Positions 6,676 to 52,013 of a stretch of DNA of 64,000 nt are shown piece by piece; within the stretch, counting starts at the first letter, position 1, and each line of letters starts with the position of its first letter. Source of the stretch: a virus; the IMG/VR virus record IMGVR_UViG_3300006750_000004, positions 31,726 to 95,725 of that record; one strand, given 5' to 3'. Both the position numbers and the translations under genes were made by a program. Below the pieces are notes generated by a model that saw only the letters and a list, made by a program, of their open reading frames with translations, was not told the DNA's origin and made no database searches.

Positions 6676-7308
6676 TTAAGCCTTCAAGTATTCATAGCCT
6701 GGCCAATCACGCACATCTTGTAATAAGATCTTTATTTTATTGTGCTCAATAGTCTCTCTAGTATATCCAACATTCCAATCAGGACCGATTTCGGGATCTG
6801 GATAAAGATTTAGGCCATCAATATCGACTTCAAGCATAGAACAATTCCCGCACATACAAGGATGGTGTGGACTACCCACAGCACTAGGCATATGAGGATC
6901 TATAAAGTGACCGAGAAGATTATTAACAGCTTGTTTATCTAAAAACAAATAAATGCGGCCTTTTTCATTGGGTCTCAGACCTTTGGTTTTGATAGATGAT
7001 AAATTTTCGGTTGGTGTGATATGGAATGCAAAACCGGTTGTTTGGAATGATTTAGTATCAGTAATCACAATTCGTAATGAATAATACTTCTTGGGTCCGC
7101 CAGAATGATATGGATTTGTTAACTCTTCCGATCCGATTAAATCCCAACCAATTTTGGTTAATTCTTGGCCCAATGCCTTCGTAGGGGGCGACTCAGAATT
7201 AACCCATATGTGGTCATCAAATGAACCCTTGATAAGAACTTTACCAAGATGTCTCTTGATAATTTCTAAAGCATCATTCTTAGATTCACAAATACTTCGT
7301 AGTTTCAT
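6676..7308 (-). CDS. ADP-ribosyltransferase-fold (Tpt1/KptA/DarT-like) protein with MKLxxIxE leader
   Basis: FHITPTENLSSIKTKGL...IYLF...LEVD...YTRETI follows the HxT-x6-I-x3-GL ART pattern; N-term MKLRSICE. Confidence 0.6.
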   Translation of the reverse strand: MKLRSICESKNDALEIIKRHLGKVLIKGSFDDHIWVNSESPPTKALGQELTKIGWDLIGSEELTNPYHSGGPKKYYSLRIVITDTKSFQTTGFAFHITPTENLSSIKTKGLRPNEKGRIYLFLDKQAVNNLLGHFIDPHMPSAVGSPHHPCMCGNCSMLEVDIDGLNLYPDPEIGPDWNVGYTRETIEHNKIKILLQDVRDWPGYEYLKA

Positions 7309-7311
7309 ATT

Positions 7312-8271
7312 TTACAGCTTCGCTGCATGTTCCAAGATTGCGTCAACGTTTTTATGGCTCATTTTACCAAACTCGTTGACAAATCCCCAAGGATTATACT
7401 CTGTACAGAAAGTAAATTTTGCACGTTCATCTGGGGATAAGATCTTGGCGGCTGTGTCGTAGTGTTCTGCTTCTTTCTGGAACCTGTCCGCTCGGTTCTT
7501 TGGTTCTACATCGGGATTATCACCGTAGAAGTGTAGTTTCCCGTCTAGACCGTCTGGGTTCATATCACATCCGAAAATATAGATGTGTTCATATCCCATC
7601 CAGAGAGCAATTTGCATCGAAGCATAGACTGAGGACCGTCCGATATGCAATCCTTTGGACATATCGCGACTGAAGCCGTTGCCGCCCAAATTCTTGAACT
7701 GCATGGACTTCTCTTTTTGCTTTTTAATGGCTGTGCTATTAAAAACAAAGCCATTAAAATTTGTCCATAGGTCCTCATGTCTCCGCATTTGAGACCCGTC
7801 AAAGAATGACCAATGTGATGTTGGCCAAAGTCTTGCGTCTGGTTTGTTGATCGACAGAGTGTCGACGTTGGGAATATTGCGGAGTTTCTCGAGTGGTGTT
7901 TCGTTTAGAGATGGCCCATTGCCGACGATGATTAGGATTTTTCCTTTACCAATATTCCTGATCGAGTTGACTTTGGCAATAGATTGGGGGGATACACCTC
8001 TAGAGACGTATCGAACTTTGGTCGCTCGCCTGATACCACGGCGGTTTTTGTGGACTACCGCTCCTGATGGTGGTATTTGTTGTTGTGGTGGCTGTGCTTG
8101 TTGTTTAGCACTTTGCGACCGGATGCGGACTTGCTTCAGTTGCTTTGGTTCAGCAACTTTGGGCTTGCCAACACTTTTGACTACTACTTTGACGGTCGGG
8201 GGGACCCGAACGATGGCCCTTTTACGGACTAGTTGTGGTTTTAGTCGAGATGTTACAACTTGTTTTACCAC
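7312..8271 (-). CDS. DUF115/Maf-sialyltransferase-like domain protein with basic N-terminal extension
   Basis: ILIIVGNGPSL...LSINK...SSVYASMQIALWMGYEHIYIFGCD...HFY. Confidence 0.65.
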   Translation of the reverse strand: MVKQVVTSRLKPQLVRKRAIVRVPPTVKVVVKSVGKPKVAEPKQLKQVRIRSQSAKQQAQPPQQQIPPSGAVVHKNRRGIRRATKVRYVSRGVSPQSIAKVNSIRNIGKGKILIIVGNGPSLNETPLEKLRNIPNVDTLSINKPDARLWPTSHWSFFDGSQMRRHEDLWTNFNGFVFNSTAIKKQKEKSMQFKNLGGNGFSRDMSKGLHIGRSSVYASMQIALWMGYEHIYIFGCDMNPDGLDGKLHFYGDNPDVEPKNRADRFQKEAEHYDTAAKILSPDERAKFTFCTEYNPWGFVNEFGKMSHKNVDAILEHAAKL

Positions 8272-8488
8272 GGCTTGTCTGCAATAATTGTTGCAGAAGC
8301 GTTGGGAGGTAAGCCGCCAGTCGGCTTGGCTCTCCTAACTTCATGAAACATGTTATTGTAGATTCGCCTTCAGTGGCTGTGTCTGGGTCTAAGAGCAAGA
8401 CGAGTGCCTCTTGATGCTCTCCCAGAAGTGCTCGAACTGATTCTGATGGCTGGTTAGCCTGTCCCTCCGTGGGTTTTTGATCTTTCAT
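8222..8488 (-). CDS. hypothetical protein
   Basis: 88-aa ORF. Confidence 0.4.
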   Translation of the reverse strand: MKDQKPTEGQANQPSESVRALLGEHQEALVLLLDPDTATEGESTITCFMKLGEPSRLAAYLPTLLQQLLQTSRGKTSCNISTKTTTSP

Positions 8489-8644
8489 TGGAGGAACCCT
8501 CTAGTGTTATCATTGATCTCTTCTCCTACATCTATAATACGTTTGCTAGTATTCCCACCAACATGTCATATTAGAGGGTTGGTGTCCGTGAGAGGTTCTG
8601 ATGTCATAGACAAAGCATACTCTATAGATCTTGACAGAAAGATT

Positions 8645-9427
8645 TCAACGTGTTCTAATTGGGCGTCGTGTCGGCGTACGTAGAGACCTTTGCGAATCGG
8701 GGAGAGTGCCCGCTTGGGCAGCTTCAAGCAATCTTGCTTGCCCCTGTTTTCTATTAGACCGCCGATTCATAATTGAATACATACAGCGGTGAATTGTCGT
8801 GGTGAGAAGGTTAAAAACGGGTGCTTTGCCCGGAATATACACAAGCTTTCCTTTAACAAGCTTGTTGGTAACTTGCAAAAGGGCCTCGTTGGCAAGATCC
8901 AACCGCTCTTCATCTGTAGGTTGCTTAAACTTCATTGCGATCCCTTGGCACATTTTATCGATGTCTCTCAACATCGCATGCCAGGACACCTCTTCTGGAA
9001 CCTCTCGCACGTACCCGTTCACTTCGATATGTGGGAGTGTCACATGTTGATTCAACGGGTTCTCCAAATTATGCACCCACGAATCCGAAAGGAGATGCAA
9101 CTCACTGACCAGGGATTCTATTTCGATCGGTTTATGATGACCATCAATGAACACAGTCCCCGAAGATTGCGGAACACCACTATAACTGCTCAAGTATACT
9201 GGATGCCCCAAAGCAATGCAATGGGCTCTTGTCGGATACGACGGGTCCAAAAGCGGTATCCCACGACGACAAATCTCTGTGTCGTCATCCCGTCTAACGG
9301 TGCCAATCACCTTTGTCCACAGCACCCCCGCCTTCCGGAAAGCCTCCAGTGTTGGTACGGACGAAGACAGCAACCAGTTAAACCAGTTCTGTTCCAAAAT
9401 CTTGGTGTCGCAATATTGACTCATCAT
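8645..9427 (-). CDS. T4 gp55-like (late sigma factor) protein
   Basis: C-term CQGIAMKF...DLANEALLQV...YIPGKAPVFNLLTTTIHRCMYSIMNR resembles the gp55/sigma region 2 pattern (D.I.DG...FDP.K..FAYFT.I...AF). Confidence 0.45.
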   Translation of the reverse strand: MMSQYCDTKILEQNWFNWLLSSSVPTLEAFRKAGVLWTKVIGTVRRDDDTEICRRGIPLLDPSYPTRAHCIALGHPVYLSSYSGVPQSSGTVFIDGHHKPIEIESLVSELHLLSDSWVHNLENPLNQHVTLPHIEVNGYVREVPEEVSWHAMLRDIDKMCQGIAMKFKQPTDEERLDLANEALLQVTNKLVKGKLVYIPGKAPVFNLLTTTIHRCMYSIMNRRSNRKQGQARLLEAAQAGTLPDSQRSLRTPTRRPIRTR

Positions 9428-9510
9428 ATCCCTTTTGTAACAAGATTACCGGATGGTTCTCCCCACAATACGGATCTATCAGTGGGGCGTTCCAATAACT
9501 ATCATGACAA

Positions 9511-10866
9511 GTGCAACGTTTCAAGGACGTTTTATCCCAATCGGAGGAATTCATGGCACTCGTACGCCAAATGCCGGAACTTTATCTTAGAGGTTCACTC
9601 GCAAATGTGACCATGGTCAACCTGACACCTGACGAAAAGCAACACGTCGAGTTTATTGTTGATTACGTCGCCAAGCACCCAGGAATGTCACGGCACCGAG
9701 CCGGGATTATGGAAGAGCTTGGAAACACGATTGGAGGCGACTACGCCAGCGACAAACGCTGCGGAGAAGCCGAATTCCAAATCGCCATCTGGAAGGCCAC
9801 GGTGGAACTCTACCACCACCGACAATATACCTTCTGCTGCAAAGCCTGTGGTTCCAACTCCTGGATCACTCAACAAGGCATCTCCCGCCAAATCAATCGC
9901 CAAAAATTAGATTGCCCCAACTGTAAACAAGTCCGCGTCACCGACCCAGGTGACACCAACCTCGTGAAGAACACATACGTTCCCTTCACAGTCTTCCAGA
10001 ACAGTTACAAATATTTCACCCCTGTCCAAACAGCTCCTAAATGTGAATCACCAATCTATTATATTCCAGGAGTTAAGAAATACTTAGACCCCGACAAAAT
10101 CATCAATTGCGACACGCAGCTAGTCAAATTCTTCGGAGAATTTGTCTGGAATTACTTCCGGCAACAACTCGCAGAAAACGGCCGCAAAGAACACCGTAAA
10201 GAGCCCCAAAAAATCTGTGGACGGGCCGACGAAATTATCACGGAAGAGCTGTTATCGCTCTGTCAACGGCTCAAAATTGATTATAATCACAGCACAAGAG
10301 ACCAACCGTCTAATGGTTATTACTCCATCGCCGTTGTTGGTTTACTCACACCACCTGAATTCACAGCAGAGTTCGCTGTATTACGACAAAAAGCAAAAAA
10401 TCACTCAGTTGAGATTAATTGCACGCCGTCCGAGATTCGGGTCATCGAAAATTCCGACGCTGGAGAATTAGAAGCATACGTCTCAAAGCCGGAACACGTC
10501 CTGATTCTCGATAACCACACCAAGAGCGGAGATGATGAGGGAAGCGATTTCACAATCAGCCAACTCTCGTTTCGCACTATCGGAGCACAAAAGATGGATC
10601 AAGACGACCACGTCGCAACAATCGACGCAACAGACGTAATGATTGCAGTACGAGAATCACTCCCAGAAGGCGATTGCCAAAGTATCTTCGATATCCAGTG
10701 CGGACTCGGAGACATCTACAACGAATTCTCCAACGAATATGGCGATGACCGGCCACGAAAAAACCATATTTCCAAATTCCTCGGAATTACGGTACGATCG
10801 GTCACCATCTATATGGAGAATATTAGGACCGTCTGCCTAGCCCACGGATTAGTACCACAGAATTAG
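9511..10866 (+). CDS. Sigma-70-like factor with inserted zinc ribbon and C-terminal HTH
   Basis: EAEFQIAIWKA (region 2-like), CKAC...CPNC insert, FFGEFVWNYFRQ, and C-terminal KNHISKFLGITVRSVTIYMENIR (region 4 HTH). Confidence 0.45.
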   Translation: MQRFKDVLSQSEEFMALVRQMPELYLRGSLANVTMVNLTPDEKQHVEFIVDYVAKHPGMSRHRAGIMEELGNTIGGDYASDKRCGEAEFQIAIWKATVELYHHRQYTFCCKACGSNSWITQQGISRQINRQKLDCPNCKQVRVTDPGDTNLVKNTYVPFTVFQNSYKYFTPVQTAPKCESPIYYIPGVKKYLDPDKIINCDTQLVKFFGEFVWNYFRQQLAENGRKEHRKEPQKICGRADEIITEELLSLCQRLKIDYNHSTRDQPSNGYYSIAVVGLLTPPEFTAEFAVLRQKAKNHSVEINCTPSEIRVIENSDAGELEAYVSKPEHVLILDNHTKSGDDEGSDFTISQLSFRTIGAQKMDQDDHVATIDATDVMIAVRESLPEGDCQSIFDIQCGLGDIYNEFSNEYGDDRPRKNHISKFLGITVRSVTIYMENIRTVCLAHGLVPQN

Positions 10867-15827: not shown

Positions 15828-16406
15828 TCACTTTTTCTCGGCCAGGACTAAGCCGACGCTAATCGGCTTTGTGAGTGTTTGTAGTATTCGCCACCCCGTA
15901 TGCTTTTCGAGATATGGGCGTAGCTTTACACATTTTTCTGCGACTACAATACGCTCGCCATCATTGTGTTCTATTCTGTCCCAGTCATGACAGGCAAACC
16001 ATGACCCAGATGCCATTCTAGTTTCTAAGAGTTTGAAATCCGAAAGTGATAAGTCCGCATCATTTGGGCCATCAAAGAAAGCAAAGTCTGGATTCAAGGT
16101 TGGAATAACCTCTGTCGATGGTTTCAAGAGGCATGTAACATGTGGTCGCCAATGATCCGTATTGAATATTTTTTTGGCTTCTGTATAGAGTATTGGGTCT
16201 ACTTCGCATGTGGTGAGATGGCCTCCCACATTCGCATCACGGATAGCATTAGCTATTTGCCAAGTTGAACCACCGCCCTTCCAAGTTCCAACTTCTAACA
16301 CAACTTTGGGTTGGGATTTCTTGACCCATTCATACAGACTTTGCCGCTCTCGCGGCTTTAGTTGTCCTTGCATATTTGGCCTATTTAGATCTTGTGACTT
16401 TACCAT
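15828..16406 (-). CDS. Class I SAM-dependent methyltransferase (Methyltransf_24-like)
   Basis: VLEVGTWKGGGST, FAFFDG, HD. Confidence 0.8.
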   Translation of the reverse strand: MVKSQDLNRPNMQGQLKPRERQSLYEWVKKSQPKVVLEVGTWKGGGSTWQIANAIRDANVGGHLTTCEVDPILYTEAKKIFNTDHWRPHVTCLLKPSTEVIPTLNPDFAFFDGPNDADLSLSDFKLLETRMASGSWFACHDWDRIEHNDGERIVVAEKCVKLRPYLEKHTGWRILQTLTKPISVGLVLAEKK

Positions 16407-16911
16407 GAATTGTTTCCGGTGCCACAGAAGCCTGAGCTATCTGTTTTGGTGTTGTGGAGTCCACTCCGGGCTGCACCGCTGAGGTGATACCCTTTCTTCT
16501 TGGATCAGGTATTATTAAACTAGTTACGTTGGTGTCATGGGTAATAAATGTGCCCTGTGGACAAGACCATGCCATTTGCCCAGCAATCCCGTTCCTTCTA
16601 GTAAAGAATTCTGGGATACCCAACCGCTCCCAACTCTCATAAGAAATCAAAGATGCCGGTCCATAAATAATGTCTCCATCCAACACCAACGAATCGGTGT
16701 GAAAGAATCCATTATTCCGTGTCCTGGTGAGATGGATCACCTTAATCTTCCAGTGGTGGACCACGACACATTTGTTATCTGCGAAGAAACACCCAGTCCA
16801 ATTCTCGAAGATGAGTGGGACATTATGCTTTGCAAGATCATCCGCCTCACAGATTTGGACATGCTCATAAGATTGTCCATCACCAAGAGAAATAAGTTCA
16901 GCATTAAACAT
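16381..16911 (-). CDS. hypothetical protein
   Basis: 176-aa ORF with GGAGG RBS. Confidence 0.6.
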   Translation of the reverse strand: MFNAELISLGDGQSYEHVQICEADDLAKHNVPLIFENWTGCFFADNKCVVVHHWKIKVIHLTRTRNNGFFHTDSLVLDGDIIYGPASLISYESWERLGIPEFFTRRNGIAGQMAWSCPQGTFITHDTNVTSLIIPDPRRKGITSAVQPGVDSTTPKQIAQASVAPETIHGKVTRSK

Positions 16912-17193
16912 GATAAATCCTCCGCAGTATTTTTAATGAGCAATAGCGTAACTAATGTCAAATCCCTCATTAATCCGATCCGGGAGGCTTACATTCTGTG
17001 TCCTTAAATAGGGCATCTTGAGTCTGGATAGAGCCAGGGGGCATGAAACCAGACGCAGGTTTCCTTTAGCAATACCACGTTTGAGTTGGATGATGTTCCA
17101 GGTGCACCAAGTAATGGGAGCCTAGAGCTGTTCATGTATTGTCCGTAAATAAATGTTACAAATTCCAGAACCACTGTTAATAAAGACAAACAC

Positions 17194-21465: not shown

Positions 21466-21891
21466 TCAATATGCGATTTCCTGGAATCCCTGCCATTGTT
21501 GCCAGCTAATAACATTCCAATTATCGCCATAATTGATTAGCCAAGATACACCATATGTGTCAGTTACCCAAATCACAAATAGATCGTTAGTGAAATTTGG
21601 ATCGCGTCCTGGAGTTATAACACGTCCAACTGGGAGGGTGGCGAAGTAACTGGGTACGACTGGAACGTCCTGATCCAACTCACCAAATCGACGACCATCA
21701 GGAAGTCCTTCTAGGATCCCATGTTTGTCGACAATATTGATCACGCCATTATTCTCTATTGCTTTGATACCCTCTTGATGGAAATAAGCAGCTATTTGTT
21801 CGGCTTCTTGTCGATTAGAACCATCATCGAATTGGTCGTTGTCTTCGAGACCGTCGTAGTCGGATGATTCGGTGATATATTTAAGTTTCAT
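21466..21891 (-). CDS. GLED-tag family protein, 1 module, MKLKYITE leader
   Basis: MKLKYITE-SSDYDGLEDNDQF followed by unique cargo. Confidence 0.8.
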   Translation of the reverse strand: MKLKYITESSDYDGLEDNDQFDDGSNRQEAEQIAAYFHQEGIKAIENNGVINIVDKHGILEGLPDGRRFGELDQDVPVVPSYFATLPVGRVITPGRDPNFTNDLFVIWVTDTYGVSWLINYGDNWNVISWQQWQGFQEIAY

Positions 21892-22697
21892 TAGTACTCG
21901 GCTGCACTGAAGATGTCTAATATTGCTTGGATGTCTTCTTCTTTGAGTTCTGGGCCGTTCCAGTCGTACCCAGTTACTTCGTCACCCTGAATGGCCAGCC
22001 AGCCCACGTCAAGGCGGTCGTAGTAGAGAGTTAATCTACCTATGAATGGTTTGAAAGTTGGGTCAGGACTTCCTGCTTCTTGAGTAGCCAATAATTCAGC
22101 TTTTCTGGCTGGGTCTATATCCACGGGCTCGGGGTCTGCCGCATCACCGCCAGCTAGGGCATCGCCAGCTACGCGCGCGCGAATATTATCCACCATTGTG
22201 GTGCCGGGTTGTCCGGCTACTTGTATTTCAATAATCCAGGATCGTGATCCTTCTTCATTCTGGTCTTCTGGAACTGATGTTACATCTATTTGAACCCACC
22301 TGTCCATCATGTCGACAAGATGGAGACCCTCTTCACCGTGTGGGTCGTAGAATCTGTCGTTGTCTTCGAGACCGTCGTAGTCGGATGATTCGGTGAGCTT
22401 CGGACGCTTACGGAGATCCGAAGGGAACGCTGATTTTATACATTTTTTACATTGTCCAGATGACCCGAAACTCGGCAGTTCGCCACAAAATCCACAAAAC
22501 AGATAATCACATTCAGTACAAGAAGCAAGGGATCGTTCATAACCACTCACATCACAATAATCACAATTTTCCATTGTATCTTGATCATCGTCATCTGGTT
22601 CCTCGATGAATTCGTCGGCGTCTTCGAGGCCGTCATAATCAGATTCGTCCGGATCTTCCGAAATCATTCTGGCTATTTTTTTAGGGTCAATTTTCAT
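21891..22697 (-). CDS. GLED-tag family polyprotein, 2 modules (Zn-finger plus unknown), MKIDPKKIARMISE leader
   Basis: Start re-assigned to ATG 22697 by identity with the starts at 25356 and 25825; tags at 22608-22640 and 22350-22382. Confidence 0.8.
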   Translation of the reverse strand: MKIDPKKIARMISEDPDESDYDGLEDADEFIEEPDDDDQDTMENCDYCDVSGYERSLASCTECDYLFCGFCGELPSFGSSGQCKKCIKSAFPSDLRKRPKLTESSDYDGLEDNDRFYDPHGEEGLHLVDMMDRWVQIDVTSVPEDQNEEGSRSWIIEIQVAGQPGTTMVDNIRARVAGDALAGGDAADPEPVDIDPARKAELLATQEAGSPDPTFKPFIGRLTLYYDRLDVGWLAIQGDEVTGYDWNGPELKEEDIQAILDIFSAAEY

Positions 22698-24919: not shown

Positions 24920-25066
24920 ATGACTAAAATCCAGAAATTGGAAGCCCCTGACTTTCTAATAGCTCTAAAGCTCACACTATTAATATCAGACCACGCTGGG
25001 GCAATCGCTGACACGTTGTTTTTATTGGACAAAGCTGGGCAATGTGCAGTCTATCGAAGGGACTAG
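24920..25066 (+). CDS. possible small leaderless protein (48 aa)
   Basis: MTKIQKLEAPDFLIALKLTLLISDHAGAIADTLFLLDKAGQCAVYRRD, with TATAAT at 24906-24911. Confidence 0.25.
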   Translation: MTKIQKLEAPDFLIALKLTLLISDHAGAIADTLFLLDKAGQCAVYRRD

Positions 25067-25356
25067 CCATTATGATTCTGCTCGATCCTCGCCAAATCAT
25101 CCTTGAAGTACTGCTGGCAGGAATGGCAGACAATCAGTTGGCCAGATGGATCTTTTAGATTGAAATTGCTGATACAATCGCTGCAGAAGTATGCATTTCG
25201 GCATCCATCACAACGGAACAACATATGTATTCCGAGTCCGCATGCGTCACATGTTTCCTTATCAACGAACTTGTCATCGTCTTCGAGGCCGTCATAATCA
25301 GATTCGTCCGGATCTTCCGAAATCATTCTGGCTATTTTTTTAGGGTCAATTTTCAT
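25063..25356 (-). CDS. GLED-tag family protein, 1 Zn-finger module, MKIDPKK leader
   Basis: MKIDPKKIARMISEDPDESDYDGLEDDDKF followed by CDAC..CDGC..CSDC..CHSC. Confidence 0.8.
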   Translation of the reverse strand: MKIDPKKIARMISEDPDESDYDGLEDDDKFVDKETCDACGLGIHMLFRCDGCRNAYFCSDCISNFNLKDPSGQLIVCHSCQQYFKDDLARIEQNHNG

Positions 25357-35686: not shown

Positions 35687-36365
35687 GATTACCATCAAGT
35701 ATGCTAGTGGTGAAACTGTTGCTTTTCAGCTAGAGGGCGATATTTGGTACCTGCGTATTGGGCCTGGTATTCCGTGTCTTTTTGATGAGCGGCTTCGTAA
35801 GCAGGTGGTTCCAAATTTAGATAGCTGGTTTCAATCTAAGACTGGACAACGTTATTCATATCGTACTGTGTGTGATATGGCCGTAGCATTTGCCACTGGC
35901 CTGAATTGCTCTTATCGTGCGGAGGATGTTGTCCGTGTTTGTACCCAAGCGTCTCGTTCTACTGTTGCTCAGGTATTCAGAACAGAATTAGTAAATGATT
36001 ATCGTCGGGCTTACTGGATTGAAATTTTAGATCCCTTGCGACTACCGGAACAAGCACAATCTATTAGGGAGAAGTTCGACTTTCTGCGTAAGAAATTGGG
36101 GGACGATGTCTTTTATAATTACCTGTGTCGTTTATGGAGAGCATGTAGTCTTCAAAATCCGAATGAGACAGCTGTATTTGAACGACTCATTCAACGACTC
36201 GGGCGACAGGCAGCGGACCCGAAGTACCCAGACACAGAAGAATTGGACAAGAAACTTTGTGAGCGTGTGGTCGGTGGGATATTGAGAAGAGACCTACCAC
36301 AATACCGCAATATTCCAGATGATATAATGAGGAACGTTGATGGTATTCAAGCCGGAAGAATATAA
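35685..36365 (+). CDS. hypothetical protein
   Basis: 226-aa ORF upstream of dnaE part 1. Confidence 0.6.
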   Translation: MITIKYASGETVAFQLEGDIWYLRIGPGIPCLFDERLRKQVVPNLDSWFQSKTGQRYSYRTVCDMAVAFATGLNCSYRAEDVVRVCTQASRSTVAQVFRTELVNDYRRAYWIEILDPLRLPEQAQSIREKFDFLRKKLGDDVFYNYLCRLWRACSLQNPNETAVFERLIQRLGRQAADPKYPDTEELDKKLCERVVGGILRRDLPQYRNIPDDIMRNVDGIQAGRI

Positions 36366-37767
36366 AGGACCGAAGGAATTCGTCCACCTACATAATCATA
36401 CTGTATTTTCCGCTCTAGATGGAGTGGCTACACCGGAGCAGTATGCTGAGCAGTGTGTAGAACGCGGTTATCCGGCGATGAGTGCTACTGAGCATGGACA
36501 TATGGCATCAGTGCCCGATATGTATCTAGCATTCAAGAAAGCAGGGGTGAAGTATATTCCAGGGTGCGAGATATACTTCAACGATTTTGAACCTGCTAGA
36601 CAAGACTTAGTGGCTAAAGGTATCAAAATCCGGTCACAGGATTGGCGTAAACAAAATCCGGAGATGGCCGCAAGATTATTTCGTAATCGTCATCTCACTG
36701 TTCTTTGCAAGAATAAGACCGGATTCCACAACCTAGTTAAATTGACGACTCAAGCATATGAGACTGGCTTATATGGCATGGGTCGAATGCAATTCAACAG
36801 GGTCTGGTTTGATAAGCTTTGCGAATACAAAGAAGGGCTTATAATCTTATCTGGGTGTCTCAATGGTCCGGTGTGTCATGAACTCCGATACAAAGAATTA
36901 ACTGATCGTGAAGGCAATGTGATTAGTGAGAGACCAAACGCAGACCGAATACGCGACGCTGTGGATTGGGTGAAGAGATTCAAGGCGGAGTTTGGAGAAG
37001 ATTATTATATAGAACTTCAGATGCCAGGTATCCCTGAGGATGATAAAATCTTTAGACTCATGATATCGATTGCTGATCAATACAAAATACCGCTCGCACT
37101 GGCTAATGATTGTCACTATCTTCGTCGTAAAGACTTTATGCTACAGAAGATTATGATGGCTGTGGCTCAGGATACGACGGTGGATTCGCCAGATTTGTTT
37201 CATGTCAATAGTGACGAACAATTTATGAAAACTAGGGCTGAATTGTGGACGCAATTTAAGAATGGCGGTTACGACAAGGGATTGGATGATGGGGTGTTTG
37301 AGGCGATGTGTGATAATACTTTGATGATAGCTGATAAATGTGAGGCGTTTGCTGTCGACACTTCCCCAAAAATCCCGGAAATCCACAATGCTGATGATCA
37401 GTTGAGAAGGTTGGTGGCTGAGAGGTTACAGAGCAGTGGCTTGGTAAAGGAGGATAAGAAGTTCGTGATCGATGGTAAGGAGGTCACTTACGTTCAGCAG
37501 GCCAAGATTGAACTTAATCGATTTATTGACAAAGGGTTTTCCAGTTACTTTATTATCACTAAGGATTTGGTGGGATATGGTAAGTCACGGGGGTGGCCGT
37601 TTAGTCCTCGTGGTAGTGCTGGTGGTTCTTTGGTGTGTTTCCTTTTAGGTATTCATACTTTGGACCCAATGCTGTGGGAATTGTCGTTTGATCGTTTTCT
37701 GTCTCCGAGTCGTGGTGGGTATATGTTGAATGTGAAGATGCCGGAGCCGATTGACCGAAGCACGTGA
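36340..37767 (+). CDS. dnaE: DNA polymerase III alpha (DnaE), part 1: PHP domain plus start of the palm
   Basis: HLHNHTVFSALDG, TEHG, GCEIY, HLTVL, SGCLNG, NDCHY, RGSAGGSLVCFLLGI..DP, FDRFL; ends before PDID. Confidence 0.92.
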   Translation: MVFKPEEYKGPKEFVHLHNHTVFSALDGVATPEQYAEQCVERGYPAMSATEHGHMASVPDMYLAFKKAGVKYIPGCEIYFNDFEPARQDLVAKGIKIRSQDWRKQNPEMAARLFRNRHLTVLCKNKTGFHNLVKLTTQAYETGLYGMGRMQFNRVWFDKLCEYKEGLIILSGCLNGPVCHELRYKELTDREGNVISERPNADRIRDAVDWVKRFKAEFGEDYYIELQMPGIPEDDKIFRLMISIADQYKIPLALANDCHYLRRKDFMLQKIMMAVAQDTTVDSPDLFHVNSDEQFMKTRAELWTQFKNGGYDKGLDDGVFEAMCDNTLMIADKCEAFAVDTSPKIPEIHNADDQLRRLVAERLQSSGLVKEDKKFVIDGKEVTYVQQAKIELNRFIDKGFSSYFIITKDLVGYGKSRGWPFSPRGSAGGSLVCFLLGIHTLDPMLWELSFDRFLSPSRGGYMLNVKMPEPIDRST

Positions 37768-37820: not shown

Positions 37821-38282
37821 TTATTTTATACGCTGCTTGTCAAAGCTGACAGACCCTCCCTCTACCCTCGGAGTGAACTCCCACACCTTGGTGATTTTGT
37901 CTAGTGGCACAGGCCCCTTAGCCCAATACTCACCCTTATGGACTTGTGAATCATCCTTATAATCATCAACCAAATGGCGAGAAACCTCCGCAACGATGCC
38001 CGTGTAAGGCATTTCACGCGGAGACTCCGAACGCCATTCAAAATCGATATGTTCAGGCGTCTCGATAGGAAGTTCCGTGGCGTAATACACCGCATCGTCG
38101 TAGTCGCCGAAGCAGGAAATGTTCTCCTGGCTCTCATAAGGAGCAAACCGGCAATCAGACAGGATATATCCACGATTAATGGCTTCTGCCCACTCTACGT
38201 TGCTCATGCCGCGATACACGAATTTAACGGAAGCCGGTTCTTGCTTATCGCCCAGTGATTCGTAAATTTGTCTAAGTCTCAT
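37821..38282 (-). CDS. ADP-ribosyltransferase-fold (R-S-E type) protein with MKLRQIYE leader
   Basis: FVYRGMS..EW....RG, ISCF....AVYYA, GEYWAKGPVP...I. Confidence 0.5.
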   Translation of the reverse strand: MRLRQIYESLGDKQEPASVKFVYRGMSNVEWAEAINRGYILSDCRFAPYESQENISCFGDYDDAVYYATELPIETPEHIDFEWRSESPREMPYTGIVAEVSRHLVDDYKDDSQVHKGEYWAKGPVPLDKITKVWEFTPRVEGGSVSFDKQRIK

Positions 38283-38551
38283 AATTTATTTTTGAGTAAT
38301 AAGCCAAAACCCCTGCGAACAGAGGTTCTGGCTTTATAGCTTAACCTCTATTGATAAAATCAATAAGAAAATTAGGCCACCAACCTTGTCACACCCCAGC
38401 AAAATAAATAGCGGGGGCGATCGACCCTAAAAATAGGTAATGAGCGATGATGGCGAGAAGGCGGGTATTATCTGGAATGAGAGAGTAGATACTTCATGCA
38501 CTGCCGTTACTGGATTTGATGAAACAGTACCGTCCAAATGGTTGAAATATA

Positions 38552-39572: not shown

Positions 39573-40052
39573 ATGTCAATTAGGGACCAGCTACAAAAAA
39601 TCGCCGATACGGGGTCAAAACGCACCGAAGGTATCGATTACGCGAGTATTGCATTACTCTTAGTGAAACCGCCATCTCGTGTTCTTTCTTCACATCGCAT
39701 CAAAAACAAGGCAGAACATACTAAACTTTTGGAAATTGCTTTTAAAAAGCAATGTCTCATTTATTTCGCATCTGTTGCACATCGTGATGGGAAATACTAC
39801 GCTGCCCAGCCATGGATTCTTGATTTGGATTCTATTAATGCTCTGTGTGAGATAGATGATACACCTAAGGTTGAAATTAAGAAAGAAGAGAGAGGCAAGA
39901 AGGCAGAAGATATTGCTCCACTAACCCTTTATTGCCCATATTGCGACCACCCAATAAACAGTACACCAGGCCGCACTCTCCACATAAAGAGTAGACATCC
40001 TGATAAACTCGAGGATTACAAAAAATGGCTGAAGTCACATGGGAAGAAATAA
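39573..40052 (+). CDS. C2H2 zinc-finger protein
   Basis: CPYC-x11-HIKSRH. Confidence 0.6.
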   Translation: MSIRDQLQKIADTGSKRTEGIDYASIALLLVKPPSRVLSSHRIKNKAEHTKLLEIAFKKQCLIYFASVAHRDGKYYAAQPWILDLDSINALCEIDDTPKVEIKKEERGKKAEDIAPLTLYCPYCDHPINSTPGRTLHIKSRHPDKLEDYKKWLKSHGKK

Positions 40053-41998
40053 AGTCTCTCGCACGCGAGGAACTTGACCAGCGTGGCTTGAACGGAGTAT
40101 ATCTCGACCGCTTGGCATTCGAACAGCGGGAAGTCGAGAAACAGGGAGCCACAGCTTATTGGACCAATCTTGTCAATGACGGCAAGAAATTCGCGTCCAA
40201 CCCTAGCCATTTAATGCTTCCCTGGTTATTAGGAATGGTGGATGGCGACCCAATTCCCAACCGTGTAGACGATATGCTCTGCACAGTACGTGCCTCTGAA
40301 GTAGTCAAGTATAAAGATTCCAAAGGCCACGTGCCATCCGATTTCATCAAAGACCCAGATATGCCAGATATCGATCTGGACTGTCTGCCAGAAGCTCGTG
40401 ATCCGATCAAGGAGTATGCCGCCAAGAAATATGGTATGAACATCACTGACGGGTATGGCCCGGTGTGCTCGGTCGGTACATGGCAGACTTATAAGTTGAG
40501 ATCGGCAATTATCGACGTTTGTACTGCTACAGCCAAAGTCGATAAAGCGGAAGCGTATGATCTCACTACCAATCTACCGGATGATGTGGATGATCTTAAA
40601 GATGGCGGCTACTCTAATTGTAAAGGTAGACCCAAGAACCGCGACGGCGAAGAGATCGAATGCAATGTATCCCATAACAGAACCAAATGCCCGGATTGTG
40701 ATTCAGAGGCAACAGACGGGCCGACAATAGGGAAACTCCTCCAAGAACACGAATTGTTACGAAATTTCGCTATAAAGTATCCAGATGTCATAAACTATGC
40801 TGTCCAAATCATCGGCCGAGTCCGGAATATGGGTATGCATGCTGGTGCTCTGATTATTGCGGACCGTACCTTATTTGGAAATATTCCATTAGCTAAGGGT
40901 GGCAAGAAGGATTATTGGGTCAGTATGTGGTCCGAGGGTCGGAATACCCAATTGTCCAAATTTGGATATATCAAGTGGGATATCCTTGGTCTCAAGACCC
41001 TCAAGTACATCTTCGAATGTTGCCGTCTGATTGAACAGAATCGTGGTATTTCGTTTGGCAAGAAGATCGAACTAGAATCGGACCACGGCCAAGAACTCCC
41101 ACCGGCTATGGATGGATGGGATGATATTGATCCAAGTAAGAACAGGGCTGGCCATTATTATGACCCACAGGGTAATAAGCACTATATCGAATTGAATGAT
41201 AAACATGTTCTCAGCTTGGCCAATGACCAGAAGACCGATGGTGTCTTCCAGTTCGACACGGATTTGGCTAAAAGCACTTTGGCGAACGGCGTCCGGAATT
41301 TTGAGGACTTAATGCTGTTTAATGCTATGGGACACCCTGGTCCGATGGCATCGATTCCTGAGGCTGTTGAGAACCGTGACGACATGTATGGGTCGTGGAA
41401 GAAGAAATTACATCCAGATATTCTCAGGGTTCTTGAATCGACGTATGGTGTGATTGTATATCAGGAGCAATTACAGGCTATTTGGCAAATAGTCGCTGGA
41501 TTTACTGCTCCCCAGGCTCAGGAGGCACGGAAAGCTGTTGCTAAGAAGTGGGTCCACAAATTGAAGCCTATTCGTGAGCAGTGGATTGTTGGTGCTACGC
41601 GGGTTCTTGGTGCTCGCGAGGCGGAGATGTGGTGGCCCAAAATGGAGACGTTTGGTAGATATGCATTCAACCGATGCCTTAACAAAGATACACCGCTTGT
41701 TGATGCGATAACCGGAGAATCATTAACAGTCGAAGAATGGTATGAGTCAAACAGATCTCCATCATTACCGTCATATGTTGACGAGGTTGTTGTTGATAAA
41801 TGTGTCGACATTCATTACAGCGGTGAGCTTGAAGTGTTTGAAATTGAATTTGATAATGGGGATAAAGAAACAGTGACTATGGGCCACAAATTTTTGTGTG
41901 GCGATGGAGAATACCATGAAGTGCGTGAAATTATCGAGCAAGGACTGGAAATCGCCGAAGCTTCGGTTGGTCTCTGTGGATCAAAAACCCAGAGTTAG
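40025..41998 (+). CDS. dnaE: DnaE part 2 (catalytic palm/fingers) fused to split-intein N-half
   Basis: PDMPDIDLD, GMHAGAL, KWDILGLKTL, GVFQF, TYGVIVYQEQ, YAFNR, then intein CLNKDT... Confidence 0.92.
   Translation: MAEVTWEEIKSLAREELDQRGLNGVYLDRLAFEQREVEKQGATAYWTNLVNDGKKFASNPSHLMLPWLLGMVDGDPIPNRVDDMLCTVRASEVVKYKDSKGHVPSDFIKDPDMPDIDLDCLPEARDPIKEYAAKKYGMNITDGYGPVCSVGTWQTYKLRSAIIDVCTATAKVDKAEAYDLTTNLPDDVDDLKDGGYSNCKGRPKNRDGEEIECNVSHNRTKCPDCDSEATDGPTIGKLLQEHELLRNFAIKYPDVINYAVQIIGRVRNMGMHAGALIIADRTLFGNIPLAKGGKKDYWVSMWSEGRNTQLSKFGYIKWDILGLKTLKYIFECCRLIEQNRGISFGKKIELESDHGQELPPAMDGWDDIDPSKNRAGHYYDPQGNKHYIELNDKHVLSLANDQKTDGVFQFDTDLAKSTLANGVRNFEDLMLFNAMGHPGPMASIPEAVENRDDMYGSWKKKLHPDILRVLESTYGVIVYQEQLQAIWQIVAGFTAPQAQEARKAVAKKWVHKLKPIREQWIVGATRVLGAREAEMWWPKMETFGRYAFNRCLNKDTPLVDAITGESLTVEEWYESNRSPSLPSYVDEVVVDKCVDIHYSGELEVFEIEFDNGDKETVTMGHKFLCGDGEYHEVREIIEQGLEIAEASVGLCGSKTQS
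41675..41998 (+). mobile_element. Split intein N-half (107 aa)
   Basis: Block A CLNKDTPL, block B VTMGHKFL, then a stop codon. Confidence 0.85.
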
Positions 41999-43436
41999 AG
42001 ACAGAGTTACAGTTTGTTGTTCTCAATGCAACAATACTTTGTCAGTAGTGTTTCGCGATTTAATAAAGTCTACCAATACTCATTTGTCGATTGGTCTTGA
42101 TGGGTATTATTGTGCATCTTGTTTGAAGACAACGCCTGCATATAAAGAAATGCATCGGAATAACTCTATTAATTCTAAATCTTTAATAATCGCAGGTGCT
42201 TCCGAACGATCTAAAAAGCTGTGGTCTGATGATGAGTATCGTGCCAAGATGGCGGCTAACAGTCTTCATCTTTCTGAATCCAAAGAATTTAAAGAGAAAA
42301 TGTCTCGTGTTATAAGTGAAAAATTCAAAGATCCACAGTACTCAAACAGTGTGAAATCAGCTAGGAAAAAGTATTGGCGTGATCTGGATTATCGATCATC
42401 TAAATCATGGTCTTTGGAGCAGTTTTTAAAAGCCGCTGCTAGAGAACATGGCGACAAATATCAATATCATCTTGTTGACTATAGGAATATTAAAACAAAG
42501 GTTGCTATCGTTTGTGAGAAACATGGAGAATTTTTGCAGCGTCCGAGTCACCATATTTTTTATGGTAACGGATGCCCGCGATGTTCTTTAGAAATTAAAG
42601 TGTCCAAGCCCCAACAAGAAATAGCCGAATGGCTTGAGGGATGTGGATACGATGTTTCTATGAATGATAGAAAGAGGCTCGACGGTCTTGAATTGGATAT
42701 TTTGGTACCTAATCGCAATTTTGCTATAGAGTATCATGGTGGGTTTTGGCATTCTTTTGATGTTGTTGAATCTGCATCTCAAAGAGCTAGGCATTCTCGC
42801 AAGGCTGATGTTGCTATACAAAACAATGTTGTTTTAATGCAGCTTTTTGATGTTGAGTGGGGTGCTAAGAAAGAACTTGTGAAGTCAATGATTTTACACC
42901 GATTGGGTGGATCATCAGAAAGGATTTATGCTAGGAATTGTACAGCTGTTGAATTGGATGGGAAAACTGCAAATCAATTTTGCGATGAAAACCATATTGC
43001 TGGTGGCAGGTATGCTGAATTGTATTATGGCTTAGAAATTGGTGGATCGTTGATTTCTGTTGTTTCATTCAAACAAACCAATGATGGATTTTTTGAAGTC
43101 ATCCGATTTTGTAGCCAAATTGGGGTGTGTGTTGTTGGAGGGTTGTCTAAAATGTTGGCTGCTTCCAGAATTGGTTCATTTATGACATATGCTGACAGAA
43201 GATACTCAACCGCTAATGGGTATCTGGCAGTTGGATTTAAAAAGATTTCTACTACTAAGCCTGGATATTACTATTGGCGAAACAATAAATTGTTTAACAG
43301 GATGAAATTCCAAAAGCATAAGTTAAACAAAATGCTAAATCTTTTTGATGGTAGCCTGACAGAAGCTGAAAATATGTTTATGAATGGATACCGTAGAATC
43401 TGGGACGCTGGCCACTATAAGTTAGTGAAGTCATGA
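41916..43436 (+). mobile_element. Free-standing homing endonuclease (Zn ribbons, DUF723-like repeat, PD-(D/E)XK/Vsr-like domain)
   Basis: HGDKYQY...CEKHGEF...GCPRC, ELDILVP...AIEYHGGFWHS, RIYAR, YADRRYS, RIWDAG; AT-rich; lies between the intein halves. Confidence 0.8.
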
Positions 43437-44692
43437 AAATTAAATCTATTCGATCTCTTGGTGTTCAGAAGACTTTCTCTCCAGAAATGGAGAGTGCCCA
43501 ACATAATTATATAACTGGGAATTCTAATGCTGTTCATAAGAATTCGCACGCTGTTTCTTACTGTCTGGTGGCACATAGATGCCTGTGGCTGAAAGCTCAT
43601 TTCGCCCCAGAGTGGTGGGCGGCGGTTATGAGTGATTGTCATCCACTTAAATTGATTCGGTATATGGGTATTGCTAGAGCTGAGAAGTGGGAGGCAACGG
43701 ATATCACTTACCAGGGCACGTACCAACCGGAGGAGAGGGCCACTAGTGTCGTATTCGACACGATTAATGTGCATAATCTCACTACGGACTTTACGGCTAC
43801 TGGTGATAAGGTCAACCAGGGGATGATTGGTATCAAGGGGATCGGGGAGGCTGCGGCTGGGTTGTTTGTTGGTCGTGGTGAGTTCTTGGATATCGACGAT
43901 TTCATTGAGAAGAAAGGTGCTAAGAGCAAGGTGGTGATGGAGCGTTTTATCAAGCTTGGTGCTTTTGGTACTTTGGAAGGTCATGAGAACAGTTATGCCA
44001 CTTGGATGTGGTATCAGTATAAATATTGCAGTGGTAAGGATATCACTCAGTTGCGGAAACAGGTCCGGCAACGGTTGTTGGATGAGGACAAATGGGATGA
44101 AGATGCTGTGGAGGAAGAACGGCAGAGGCAGACGTCTGAATATAAAGCCCAATTCCCCAATCGCCGCAAGATTCCGAATAAGATCCAGAATTGGAAGCCG
44201 AAGCCTGATGATCGGCGTGAGCGAGTGATGGCTTTATATGCTGACAAGTTGTTCTCCCTGGAGGAGACTTTGGAGTTTGAGAAACAATATCTTGGATATT
44301 ATCTGCACTCTCCCTTGGATCTGTATGATATTCAGGGCGATTGTAATATTGAGGCGGCTAAGGAGGTTAGCAAGAATGGTGGTGATCCCAAGTTGGAGGT
44401 GGTGATTACTGATTTGCAATTTGCTGAGACAAAGACAAAGAAGGAGTATGCTAGGCTGATTGTGAGTGATGGGATGCAAAGTGCCTTGATTCTTCTTTTC
44501 AGCAATGAATTGGCGATGCAGGCTGCGAATAGCTTGGTGGTCGGTACTGGTGTTCAGGCATGTGTTGATTATGACGAGATGCGTGGTACTTTTACTATGA
44601 AGAGGAACCAGATCCTTGTCAAACTCCTCCCGAAAAATTGGCGTGAACGTCAAAGAGAAATTGACGGCCTTCCTCTACTTGATGATGCGTGA
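43433..44692 (+). CDS. dnaE: Split-intein C-half (37 aa) fused to DnaE part 3 (HhH plus OB fold)
   Basis: MKIKSIRSLG...HNYI...VHKN|SHAVSY...WLKAHF; IKGIG; LEFEKQYLGYYLHSPL. Confidence 0.9.
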   Translation: MKIKSIRSLGVQKTFSPEMESAQHNYITGNSNAVHKNSHAVSYCLVAHRCLWLKAHFAPEWWAAVMSDCHPLKLIRYMGIARAEKWEATDITYQGTYQPEERATSVVFDTINVHNLTTDFTATGDKVNQGMIGIKGIGEAAAGLFVGRGEFLDIDDFIEKKGAKSKVVMERFIKLGAFGTLEGHENSYATWMWYQYKYCSGKDITQLRKQVRQRLLDEDKWDEDAVEEERQRQTSEYKAQFPNRRKIPNKIQNWKPKPDDRRERVMALYADKLFSLEETLEFEKQYLGYYLHSPLDLYDIQGDCNIEAAKEVSKNGGDPKLEVVITDLQFAETKTKKEYARLIVSDGMQSALILLFSNELAMQAANSLVVGTGVQACVDYDEMRGTFTMKRNQILVKLLPKNWRERQREIDGLPLLDDA

Positions 44693-49780: not shown

Positions 49781-50551
49781 ATGGCTCAATGTGTCTACTG
49801 TGATAAAGTAGAAAATCTTAATACGCAGCTTACCGTCACTTTGGAGGATGGTAATCGGATCACTGTGGATATCTGCGATGAACATGCAGAAGAAGCATCT
49901 ATCAAAACGGCCAAGGCTGCACATCTTGATAAACAGAGGAAGATTGAGGAAGTCCTAGCACAAGCTAAAGCACTTGGTTTGGATCTGAGTCAGACTGACA
50001 GTGGCCTTACCGTTGCTGCTACCCAACCTACCCAGCCTACCCCGGCCTCCCCTACTCCAGTAGCTCAAAATCCAGTATTGGAGGATATGGGCGGGGATGA
50101 TGTTATTGAGACTGGTCTTATTGACAGTAGACCTGGAATGACATCTGTTGGTGGATCCACTGATATGGGTGCTGTTGCTTCCCACACTTCTCATCAAGTA
50201 ATTGGGCAAGAGGATATTCTGTCCGAAGAAATCCTGAAGGGCAAGGCGAAAATGGGATTGGCTGAGGGGCGTGAGGGTATGCCTATGGCCATCCCTGAGA
50301 AACGAGTAGATGGTACTGGTACCACACGTATTAAGATCACTAAGGCAGAGGACGACCAAAAATTACAAAGTCGGTTTAAGAAAATGGCCGACGACTCGAT
50401 GCATGACAAAGTACCAGATTTCGCAAGGTCGGGATATTCGAATACGACCGTTAACTGCGGAATGTGTAGGGGTGAGGGGTCAATTAATAATGCTGGTAAA
50501 ATTATAGAGTGCCCCAAATGTGGGGGAGCAGGGATTATTTCTACTTATTGA
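49781..50551 (+). CDS. Protein with C-terminal DnaJ-type zinc finger
   Basis: CGMCRGEG...CPKCGGAG. Confidence 0.7.
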   Translation: MAQCVYCDKVENLNTQLTVTLEDGNRITVDICDEHAEEASIKTAKAAHLDKQRKIEEVLAQAKALGLDLSQTDSGLTVAATQPTQPTPASPTPVAQNPVLEDMGGDDVIETGLIDSRPGMTSVGGSTDMGAVASHTSHQVIGQEDILSEEILKGKAKMGLAEGREGMPMAIPEKRVDGTGTTRIKITKAEDDQKLQSRFKKMADDSMHDKVPDFARSGYSNTTVNCGMCRGEGSINNAGKIIECPKCGGAGIISTY

Positions 50552-50748
50552 TGGATAGTATTATGACGCCAAGGACGTGCTTAGGCCCTGGATGTGGGAA
50601 AACTTTCTTATCAGATAGGCCAAAATCACAACACCGGATTTGCCCGGACTGCGATAAAAAACGACCCAAGACATATGGGAAGACTTCCAGCAGTGGTAAA
50701 GGCAAGAGAGCTGGAAAATCTGTTAATTCTGGCGTTGACTCTGGTTAG
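50551..50748 (+). CDS. small basic zinc-finger protein
   Basis: CLGPGC...RICPDC; TGATG coupling to the upstream gene. Confidence 0.55.
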   Translation: MDSIMTPRTCLGPGCGKTFLSDRPKSQHRICPDCDKKRPKTYGKTSSSGKGKRAGKSVNSGVDSG

Positions 50749-50987
50749 AGTCTGATCGTCCCTGGTCTTGCTTCCATACCGAGGTATTGGCGGTGTCGTG
50801 GTTTTTGCGGCACCCCGGTTGGGAGATAAGTGCCACTAGATACCCTGGTACCAGAATCCATCCCTCTAGATGAATCATAGAGTTGGTTGGATGTGACGAA
50901 TGGACGTGCGGCGAACGGCCCAGACCTGAGTAGTTGCCCCCGGACTTGCTGCATGATCAGGTTTTCGTTGATTTGCCGCAATTTCAC
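50745..50987 (-). CDS. small protein with MKLRQINE leader
   Basis: Shares the MKLxxIxE leader. Confidence 0.6.
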   Translation of the reverse strand: MKLRQINENLIMQQVRGQLLRSGPFAARPFVTSNQLYDSSRGMDSGTRVSSGTYLPTGVPQKPRHRQYLGMEARPGTIRL

Positions 50988-51020
50988 GCTAATTTGGCCA
51001 TTTGACGGGGTTAGTGTCCA

Positions 51021-52013
51021 TTAATAATACCAATCAGGTGGTTCTTTTGGTGGGAAACCTTGAGGAGGTTCCCAGAGGCGGCCCCATTGCGGAGGCCAGC
51101 GCCACCTATTATCTTTGTACGCTCTGAGGTAGACCTTATCTTTAATCATTTCGGTCAACTTCTCATACGACGTCTGATGATAGAATTGGACTCCTAACCA
51201 GGTGGCAAGCTCCTGGATGAAGCTGAGGTCGAAATCATCTATGATGTTCTCACCGAACATCACATCCCACCGTTGGGGACTATTGACGTCAATCAGGAGT
51301 GTGACTTGGTCGCATGCTATGGTGAATTGGTAAACCGATCTCCATTCTATCTCGTAGTCCTTCTCGAATTCGTCCGCGTCCTCGAGACCGTCGTAATCAG
51401 ACGATTCCGTTAAGTTCCCAGTTTTGGCACAATTTGGGCAAGTGTAGACGTCGTAGCATCGAGTGGCAGCTAGTACTCGCTGACCCTGGAGAACATTGTG
51501 ATTTTGGCGAAAATATTGCCCTGGTTCTGGGCGGTAGTACCAGCCGGTCGATGTGATTCCTTCCCGTTGGCTGTCGTATTGGTGAATGTCTTTTTGGGTC
51601 GGCATCGCACAACTGAAGTGGACAGCGATATCGCATCTGTCACATACCCAAGGGCCGACGCTGTCTTCTGGGACATCCATTCTGCAGCCATAGCACGGAC
51701 CTAGAGAAGGTTCGCCGAACTCATCGGCATCTTCGAGTCCGTCGTAATCAGATTCAGATACTGGTTTTGCCCAATGTCTACTGCCCCAGCAATTTGGACA
51801 CCATCTTTGTGCGTTAAAAGAATATGATTCGCGATCCTCGTGACGTCCCGCACATTGAGCACAGATATCTAGTGGTACTTCTTTGCCACACCCACCAATA
51901 CACGGTATATTGGTTTGTTCATAGAGCTCGCCGCAATAATTACAGTTAGATGCGAACTCATCGGCATCTTCGAGTCCGTCGTAATCAGATTCAGAGATCT
52001 GGAAGAGTTTCAT
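51021..52013 (-). CDS. GLED-tag family polyprotein, 3 modules (Zn finger, PHD-like finger, unknown), MKLFQISE leader
   Basis: DYDGLEDADEF at 51954-51986, 51717-51749 and 51366-51398. Confidence 0.85.
   Translation of the reverse strand: MKLFQISESDYDGLEDADEFASNCNYCGELYEQTNIPCIGGCGKEVPLDICAQCAGRHEDRESYSFNAQRWCPNCWGSRHWAKPVSESDYDGLEDADEFGEPSLGPCYGCRMDVPEDSVGPWVCDRCDIAVHFSCAMPTQKDIHQYDSQREGITSTGWYYRPEPGQYFRQNHNVLQGQRVLAATRCYDVYTCPNCAKTGNLTESSDYDGLEDADEFEKDYEIEWRSVYQFTIACDQVTLLIDVNSPQRWDVMFGENIIDDFDLSFIQELATWLGVQFYHQTSYEKLTEMIKDKVYLRAYKDNRWRWPPQWGRLWEPPQGFPPKEPPDWYY

Follow-up and report, generated by a model that had tools for sequence, protein, structure and literature searches.

Why should a virus begin a series of otherwise dissimilar genes with nearly the same eight residues? 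The question is raised by a 64,000-nucleotide stretch of viral DNA (hereafter the window), bases 31726-95725 of the 95.7-kb IMG/VR viral contig G0, in which the N-terminal sequence MKLxxIxE recurs at dispersed genes of the minus strand. An initial annotation of the window took this leader for a packaging address, by analogy with the capsid-targeting sequence (CTS) of T4 internal proteins, and proposed that it unites a set of tagged polyproteins and two enzymes resembling ADP-ribosyltransferases (ARTs) into a single class of injected proteins. Sequence comparisons with relatives of G0 lead us to give an even chance to the following reading: the leader, M-[KR]-L-[R]-x-[I/L]-x-E-[S/N/G], would be the T4-CTS-like virion-cargo leader of a clade of jumbo phages, clipped by an S77-family prohead protease.

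The leader in the window and across the clade

A six-frame scan of the window recovered all eight leader sites that had been proposed, all on the minus strand. Six are exact matches to MKLxxIxE (7308, 21891, 23742, which is internal to a gene, 24228, 26418 and 52013); the other two depart from the sequences first quoted, reading MRLRQIYE at 38282, with R for K, and VKLRQINE at 50987, where the start codon is GTG. A second leader, MKIDPKKIARMISE (class II), does start genes at the three sites attributed to it, 22697, 25356 and 25825. The claim that each leader is followed by unrelated sequence holds for 7308, 38282 and 50987 but not for 21891, 23742, 24228, 26418 and 52013, which run into a common acidic tag, (S)DYxGLEDxDxF. 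The tag is present in 14 copies in two clusters of the window, 13 of them with [ILV]-x-E shortly upstream. Since they share it, these five leaders belong to paralogues and are not independent cases, which leaves only g45, g85 and g105 as independent cases inside the window.

The search was widened to relatives in IMG/VR, which were found with a degenerate DNA pattern for the tag, and in which the tag again stands behind MKLxxIxE starts. G1 (146.8 kb) is collinear with G0, 70 of 124 proteins matching at a median identity of 72%, and G2 (146 kb) is a more distant relative. Synteny with G0 extends to G3 (354 kb, 98% complete), in which 57 of 124 proteins match at ~50% identity; G3 also has 65 of the 207 G2 proteins in common (median identity 51%), its capsid protein being 87% identical to that of G2; these two affinities of G3 place the phage of the window in the same clade. 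This clade, defined by the G2 capsid protein, comprises a large number of IMG/VR contigs, some up to 408 kb, and the nearest named relatives of its capsid protein are T4-like gp23 proteins at 26-28% identity. G0, G1 and G2 are partial genomes (completeness of G0, 26% by CheckV), and G3 and G5 were treated as complete relatives. The gene content of G0 (UvsX, DnaB, a split Pol III alpha, SbcCD, SSB and a radical-SAM protein) points to replication and nucleotide metabolism. DNA of the window is present in marine metagenomes of 15 studies; among GenBank phages, the tag cluster had no counterpart at the DNA level, and g106, g45 and g85 had none at the protein level.

Sixteen such N-termini were counted among 549 open reading frames (ORFs) of three genomes, where about 0.1 would be expected. 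In a clade set of 1471 distinct N-termini, drawn from G0, G1, G2 and 80 loci around the capsid-protein gene, the pattern M[KR]L..[ILM].E occurs in 32, and control patterns (shifted I/E spacing, exchange of I and E, or replacement of E by D, K or R) gave 0-3 matches. More than half of the M[KR]L starts (32 of 60) complete the full pattern, which without L at position 3 occurs in only 6 N-termini, a strong preference for L3. Residue 6 of the 32 leaders is I (26) or L (6), residue 8 is E, and in 24 of them S, N or G follows at position 9. Every codon for Leu, Ile and Glu (six, three and two, respectively) is represented, so that the residues are kept through free synonymous change, which indicates selection on the peptide. 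What lies behind the leader is unrelated from protein to protein: two GNATs, a DUF5662 protein, an HD domain, an ART-like domain, zinc-finger arrays and small proteins. Protein-family alignments of leader proteins begin past the leader, and a Pfam search returned few domains for most of these proteins. G3 and G5 each hold four or five dispersed genes with the class-I leader and one with the class-II leader, whose clade-wide consensus is M-x(2-6)-I-A-x-[L/M]-I-[T/S]-E-D-P-D and whose end, I-[T/S]-E-D, is of the same kind; the class-II leader probably serves the same function. Judged by sequence counts, a leader is thus shared by otherwise unrelated proteins of the phage, as for T4-type leaders, with only three of the eight window sites independent.

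One independent case is g85 (153 amino acids; 37821-38282, minus strand), in which the leader MRLRQIYE (38259-38282) is followed by a variable linker and an ART-fold-like domain. Its homologues (n=6) retain MKLxx[IM]xE, behind which come a linker that varies in length through many indels and then an invariant core; the YRG motif is invariant in the orthologues. In the AlphaFold2 model, residues 1-16 have a predicted local distance difference test score below 50. The best matches of the model in the PDB are all ARTs (pertussis and cholera A subunits, TreX, Tpt1), but weak ones (E 0.008-0.1, TM-score ~0.45-0.5). The second case, g105 (80 amino acids; 50745-50987, minus strand), starts with GTG and belongs to a small family conserved in the clade; its leader, KLRQINE behind a Val codon read as formyl-Met, spans 50964-50987. 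The G1 copy also starts with GTG, and the G3 orthologue starts with ATG and reads MKLRWIHES. Across G0, G1 and G3, the only conserved parts of g105 are the leader and a C-terminal TGVPxKPRHRQ block.

The third case is weaker. Membership in the leader class is doubtful for g45 (210 amino acids; 6676-7308, minus strand), which starts with MKLRSICE (7285-7308). An identical g45 is found on a 189-kb contig, and there are no homologues beyond identical copies, none being present in G1 or G3. In the single-sequence AlphaFold2 model, residues 6-21 are helical, but the model is poor, including residues 85-210, and too poor for a fold search; for an ART/Tpt1-like fold of g45 there are Atlas leads only. 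The grouping of the tagged polyproteins with two ART-like enzymes is accordingly less firm than first proposed, given the doubtful membership of g45 and the weak ART matches of g85.

Three other accounts of the leader were discarded. It is not a secretion signal, as it lacks a hydrophobic core, nor part of a conserved domain, given the unrelated cargo and the disorder of the g85 leader. Leader genes are not clustered near head genes either, their density around the capsid-protein gene being no higher than elsewhere.

Head proteins and a promoter-like motif

In G2, the head module consists of TerL, the portal, a 1019-amino-acid acidic protein, a Peptidase_S77 protease (PF03420, E = 6.5e-20), the scaffold and a gp23-like capsid protein, and tag genes lie 1.7-2.6 kb downstream of it. 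The S77 protease and the gp23-like capsid protein score above the family cut-off in G2, G4 and G5; in G3, the S77 match is below the cut-off and is split in two halves ~1.1 kb apart, as if by an intein-type insertion. The N-termini of the capsid proteins (57 distinct) conserve three h-x-E sites (h, hydrophobic) separated by variable sequence, namely H-L-[T/V]-E before G or S, [I/L/M]-[T/S/N]-E before E or A, and [I/L]-H-E before S, G or A, and those of the proteases keep [L/I/V]-I-A-E-T-G. The comparison of leader starts with head-protein propeptides that the initial annotation had proposed turned out partly in its favor: besides the 32 matching N-termini, the capsid protein and the protease retain [ILV]-x-E sites. 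At the level of sequence, the leader, which ends in I/L-x-E before a small residue as expected of a T4-type protease motif, and the head proteins have the same candidate cleavage consensus. A predicted complex of the G2 prohead protease (28-row alignment) with residues 1-40 of a G2 leader-plus-tag protein scored 0.22 against a mark of 0.32, and neither supports nor opposes this correspondence.

Many leader genes carry the motif YAAAWWTA exactly 4 nt before the ATG and have no Shine-Dalgarno site, an arrangement that would make their mRNA leaderless or nearly so. At this spacing, the loose form AA[AT][AT]TA precedes 13 of 32 leader genes versus 15 of 1418 others, and most of those 15 encode leader-like starts (MKLAKIIT, MKLRTIND, MKLNQINK, MEPKDIAKRITEDPD). 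With the strict motif, the counts were 11 with and 20 without among leader genes versus 12 and 1386 among others (Fisher p = 8e-14). The spacing between motif and ATG is bimodal, with a spike at 4 nt (23 genes; antisense control, 1) and a broad maximum between 10 and 59 nt (134; control, 42); 11 of the 23 genes in the spike are strict leader genes, and most of the rest are leader-like. Upstream of G0's window, a 601-amino-acid protein (8922-10727 of G0, plus strand) has such a variant start, MKLAKIIT, with T at position 8 and CAAAATTA exactly 4 nt before its ATG.

The portal and scaffold genes conserve the same motif 20-40 nt ahead of them, as gTAAATATA (17 of 23) and gCAAAAATAA (37 of 56), respectively. 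The motif is rare before the protease gene (2 of 42) and the capsid-protein gene (2 of 56), both of which follow other genes in operons; the capsid-protein gene has a normal GGAG site. Within the window, only five ORFs or units have the motif upstream, namely g75, g85, the g107-g106-g105 operon, g58 and one doubtful ORF. Three of these are leader or tag units and none is a replication gene. All on the minus strand, CAAAAATA (38287-38294) stands 4 nt before the ATG of g85, which has no Shine-Dalgarno site, and CAAAATTA stands 4 nt before that of g75 (26423-26430) and 25 nt before that of g107 (52578-52585). As for the remaining two, g58 (176 amino acids) has the motif 16 nt upstream (motif and gene within 16381-16935, minus strand), and the doubtful ORF (79 amino acids), which overlaps the end of g103, has it 4 nt upstream (within 50497-50748, plus strand).

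Several minor observations concern the head genes of the clade. In some members, the prohead protease ORF has 640-651 rather than ~245 amino acids (L061:6497-8419, L057:6548-8503). The protease and the major capsid protein start with MLP[S/T]R (L040:8826-9575, L040:10417-12036; loci L045-L124), followed by a variable basic stretch and then by the h-x-E sites, and this start may serve shell and core proteins as another N-terminal signal common to them. The 1019-amino-acid protein, encoded between the portal and protease genes (L040:5754-8813), is very acidic and of low complexity, with many h-x-E sites and with Gly-Leu-Glu/Asp-rich stretches (e.g., GGLEDLGAEEE, DDDLGLGDDDD) loosely resembling the GLEDADEF of the tag; it is possibly a core protein that the tag imitates. 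In G1 (L037-L038), only three short pieces of the capsid protein are encoded, at ~114256-114405, 128532-128633 and 129135-129224 (residues 96-145, 472-505 and 507-536). They are separated by ~14 kb in which other genes are found, among them radical-SAM, RNase H-like, ThyX-like and sulfatase-like ones, so that the capsid-protein gene is either split, decayed or wrongly assembled. Immediately behind it, at 129415, comes a tag gene (MKLRRIAESDYEGLEDADEF). From ~130 kb onward, G1 is predicted to encode Arg/Pro-rich proteins, unlike those of the remainder of the contig, and this end may be chimeric.

Possible capsid targeting and its alternatives

The T4 prohead protease gp21 cuts after Glu at (L/I)-x-E. 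By way of analogy only, encapsulin cargo-loading peptides also show that a short conserved peptide can send diverse cargo into a shell of the HK97 fold; they differ in being C-terminal and uncleaved, and in that no DNA packaging or injection is involved. Compared with the T4 CTS, the clade leader has 8 residues (MKLRxIxE) instead of 10, with no homology to the T4 sequence, and many of its genes have, unlike those of T4, a promoter-like motif abutting the ATG. The likeness lies elsewhere: as in IPI, IPII and IPIII, a short leader with an M-K start and an I-x-E end is borne by unrelated, fast-evolving accessory proteins, in a clade some members of which (G2, G4 and G5) have a gp23-type capsid protein and an S77 protease above the family cut-off, and hydrophobic positions precede the cut site, which is putative in the clade (PMC9026906, PMC3012670). 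In T4 IPIII, the 10 N-terminal residues suffice for head targeting, residues 8 and 10 governing processing (PMC9026906), and the T4 internal proteins are diverse apart from the CTS (PMC3012670). The ADP-ribosyltransferase Alt of T4, which is packaged and injected, is processed at ITE-6 and LTE-619 (PMC5694885). Its very short propeptide ending in I-T-E recalls the MRLRQIYE of the ART-fold-like g85 and the MKL(R/K)xITE of several tagged proteins, but Alt has ~680 amino acids and g85 only 153, with no detectable sequence similarity and weak fold matches. Jumbo phages such as phiKZ, 201phi2-1 and SPN3US also trim many head-internal proteins after Glu, often at several sites per propeptide, and the trimmed proteins include paralogues with identical N-termini (PMC5694885, PMC9026906). 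Their proteases are of the S80 family and cut at (S/A/G)-x-E (PMC5694885, PMC9026906), whereas the clade has an S77 protease and I, L or V at P3; the propeptides of the phiKZ group are, moreover, long and have no common 8-residue leader.

A capsid-targeting function would involve five steps, all of which we infer. Leader genes would be transcribed from the YAAAWWTA element that also precedes the portal and scaffold genes, stand-alone leader genes giving rise to leaderless mRNA. The hydrophobic L3 and I6 would then dock the protein onto the prohead scaffolding core, and the S77 (gp21-like) prohead protease would cut after E8, at I-x-E before S, N or G. Tagged polyproteins would be cut additionally at the internal [ILV]-x-E-S before each acidic tag and thereby be released as separate modules. 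Finally, the cargo (ART-like, GNAT and HD enzymes, zinc-finger modules and small proteins) would be retained in the head and enter the host together with the DNA. The packaging address first proposed is thus supported in part, in that the sequence pattern fits a T4-style clipped leader, but not in its premise of unrelated downstream sequence, which was wrong for five of the eight sites.

A number of observations weigh against this reading. No head gene was recognized on the G0 contig, searches for the S77 protease and the capsid protein being empty, and an intact head module is also missing from the close relative G1, which has capsid-protein fragments only; the link to the protease therefore rests on relatives at ~50% identity. 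The capsid protein and the protease of the clade themselves start with MLP[ST]R and not with MKL. Unlike the small basic internal proteins of T4, the clade cargo is mostly acidic (the part behind the leader has an isoelectric point of 4-6 in most cases) and includes enzymes and zinc-finger arrays, and phage heads are not known to carry Cys-rich zinc-finger arrays. A T4-late-like promoter common to head and leader genes, with leaderless transcripts for the latter, is suggested by the position of the motif only, and a Sigma70_r2 search found no sigma-type factor in the partial genomes G0, G1 and G2. The M-K start could in part reflect the needs of leaderless translation. As for g45, it has no promoter motif and lies behind g46 at the end of the PurZ (nucleotide-metabolism) operon. 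Lastly, the searches brought up no cultured relative.

Could the shared N-terminus be a by-product of expression signals rather than a protein address? Leaderless transcripts, a single promoter class, and ribosome binding or a translational operator overlapping the start, for which T4 RegA provides a precedent, might impose similar first codons. The fixed position of the motif 4 nt from the ATG without a Shine-Dalgarno site in 11-13 of 32 leader genes and the AAA second codon in 23 of 32 agree with this possibility. Nevertheless, L3, I6, E8 and S9 are kept through all synonymous codons, leaving no RNA sequence conserved there; the leader is also found on translationally coupled genes that lack the motif (g66, g106 and G1 27772) and as an internal in-frame copy in g69; and the strict spacing of I-x-E and a small residue fits a protease site but no known initiation signal. 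We consider this account distinctly unlikely. Cassette recombination that copied 5' ends and promoters between genes, or common ancestry, could also have left the leader behind as a functionless relic, and five of the eight leader copies in the window do belong to tag-sharing paralogues. A relic should hardly have been kept across lineages at 35-50% protein identity while the downstream sequence diverges or is unrelated, and the conservation of particular positions despite free synonymous change is a mark of purifying selection on the peptide; this origin appears very improbable.

The leader, the tag or both might instead be recognized by another partner with no capsid loading involved, such as a maturase of the radical-SAM type acting on Cys-rich cargo, as for ribosomally synthesized and post-translationally modified peptides, a chaperone, or a system reading a timed-degradation or host-hub motif. 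Much of the tagged cargo is indeed Cys-rich, a radical-SAM gene (31557-32753) is located 5 kb from the tag cluster, and G1 has three such genes. In G2, however, leader and tag genes are present with no radical-SAM match in 146 kb, and the radical-SAM gene of the window has no syntenic orthologue in G1. A tight linkage of tagged genes to one radical-SAM maturase family was not found in G0, G1 and G2, a weak test in view of their partial state. Furthermore, the leader is borne by cargo that is not Cys-rich (GNAT, HD, ART-like), and the tag is missing from G3 and G5, which both have the leader. A different partner thus seems unlikely, and each of these alternatives explains less of the data than a CTS-like leader.

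If the CTS-like reading is right, the T4 CTS principle would extend to a distant jumbo lineage, the new elements being the 8-residue sequence, the clade itself, the ATG-abutting promoter-like motif and the association with the acidic-tag family. A simple sequence rule, an MKLRxIxE start often with YAAAWWTA 4 nt upstream, would then allow the injected proteins of this uncultured and widespread clade, marine phages of 350-400 kb, to be recognized straight from metagenomes. Host defenses encounter the injected proteins of a phage before all its others, and here these would include ART-like, GNAT and HD enzymes together with tagged zinc-finger modules. The arrangement also points to leaderless late transcripts in a T4-type phage, and the 8-residue leader might be used to load large capsids with foreign proteins. 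A bolder proposal, which we think improbable, is that promoter-like element, ATG and leader form a portable plug-in unit by which any gene could become that of a late effector, made from a leaderless transcript, loaded into the head and injected. The acidic tag of G0, G1 and G2 (YxGLEDxDxF, with its own upstream h-x-E cut site) would then string zinc-finger modules into polyproteins that the protease cuts into a changeable library of injected proteins, the tag being kept as a second address or as a DNA-mimicking handle.

Tagged polyproteins and other window genes

A full-text literature search found no publication on the tag sequence. The tagged genes of the first cluster are all on the minus strand. 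The gene g75 (25915-26418; 167 amino acids) encodes the leader MKLRHIIE (26395-26418) followed by the acidic tag and Cys-rich cargo. The largest tagged protein, g69 (22735-24228; 497 amino acids), starts with MKLRHITE (24205-24228), contains the in-frame internal copy MKLKHITE (23719-23742) and carries five tags, each behind [IV]-x-E. In g66 (21466-21891; 141 amino acids), the leader MKLKYITE (21868-21891) is accompanied by a tag, and the start overlaps the upstream stop codon (TAATG). This upstream gene (21891-22697) bears the class-II leader at 22656-22697 and two tags. Two further genes with the class-II leader have one tag each: g73 (25063-25356; 97 amino acids; leader at 25315-25356), which encodes a MYND-type zinc finger (zf-MYND match of 23.1 bits versus a cut-off of 22.7), and g74 (25346-25825; leader at 25784-25825).

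The remaining tagged gene, g106 (51021-52013, minus strand; 330 amino acids), starts with MKLFQISE (51990-52013) and has three tags, behind ISE, VSE and LTE. It is translationally coupled to g107 (52013-52552, minus strand), the first gene of the g107-g106-g105 operon, which has a GGAGG Shine-Dalgarno site and no leader. An orthologue of g106 lies between g107 and g105 in G1. In G3 (30732-31531), the gene is missing and the orthologues of g107 and g105 abut, which makes g106 look like a clean, lineage-specific insertion of a tagged gene.

The split Pol III alpha of the window is encoded in pieces at 36337-37767, 40025-41998 and 43433-44692, the last two of which match one 978-amino-acid ORF of G1. 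Between these two, ~1.4 kb contains a 512-amino-acid ORF read in a different frame (41898-43436), suggestive of an intron or a homing-endonuclease insertion.

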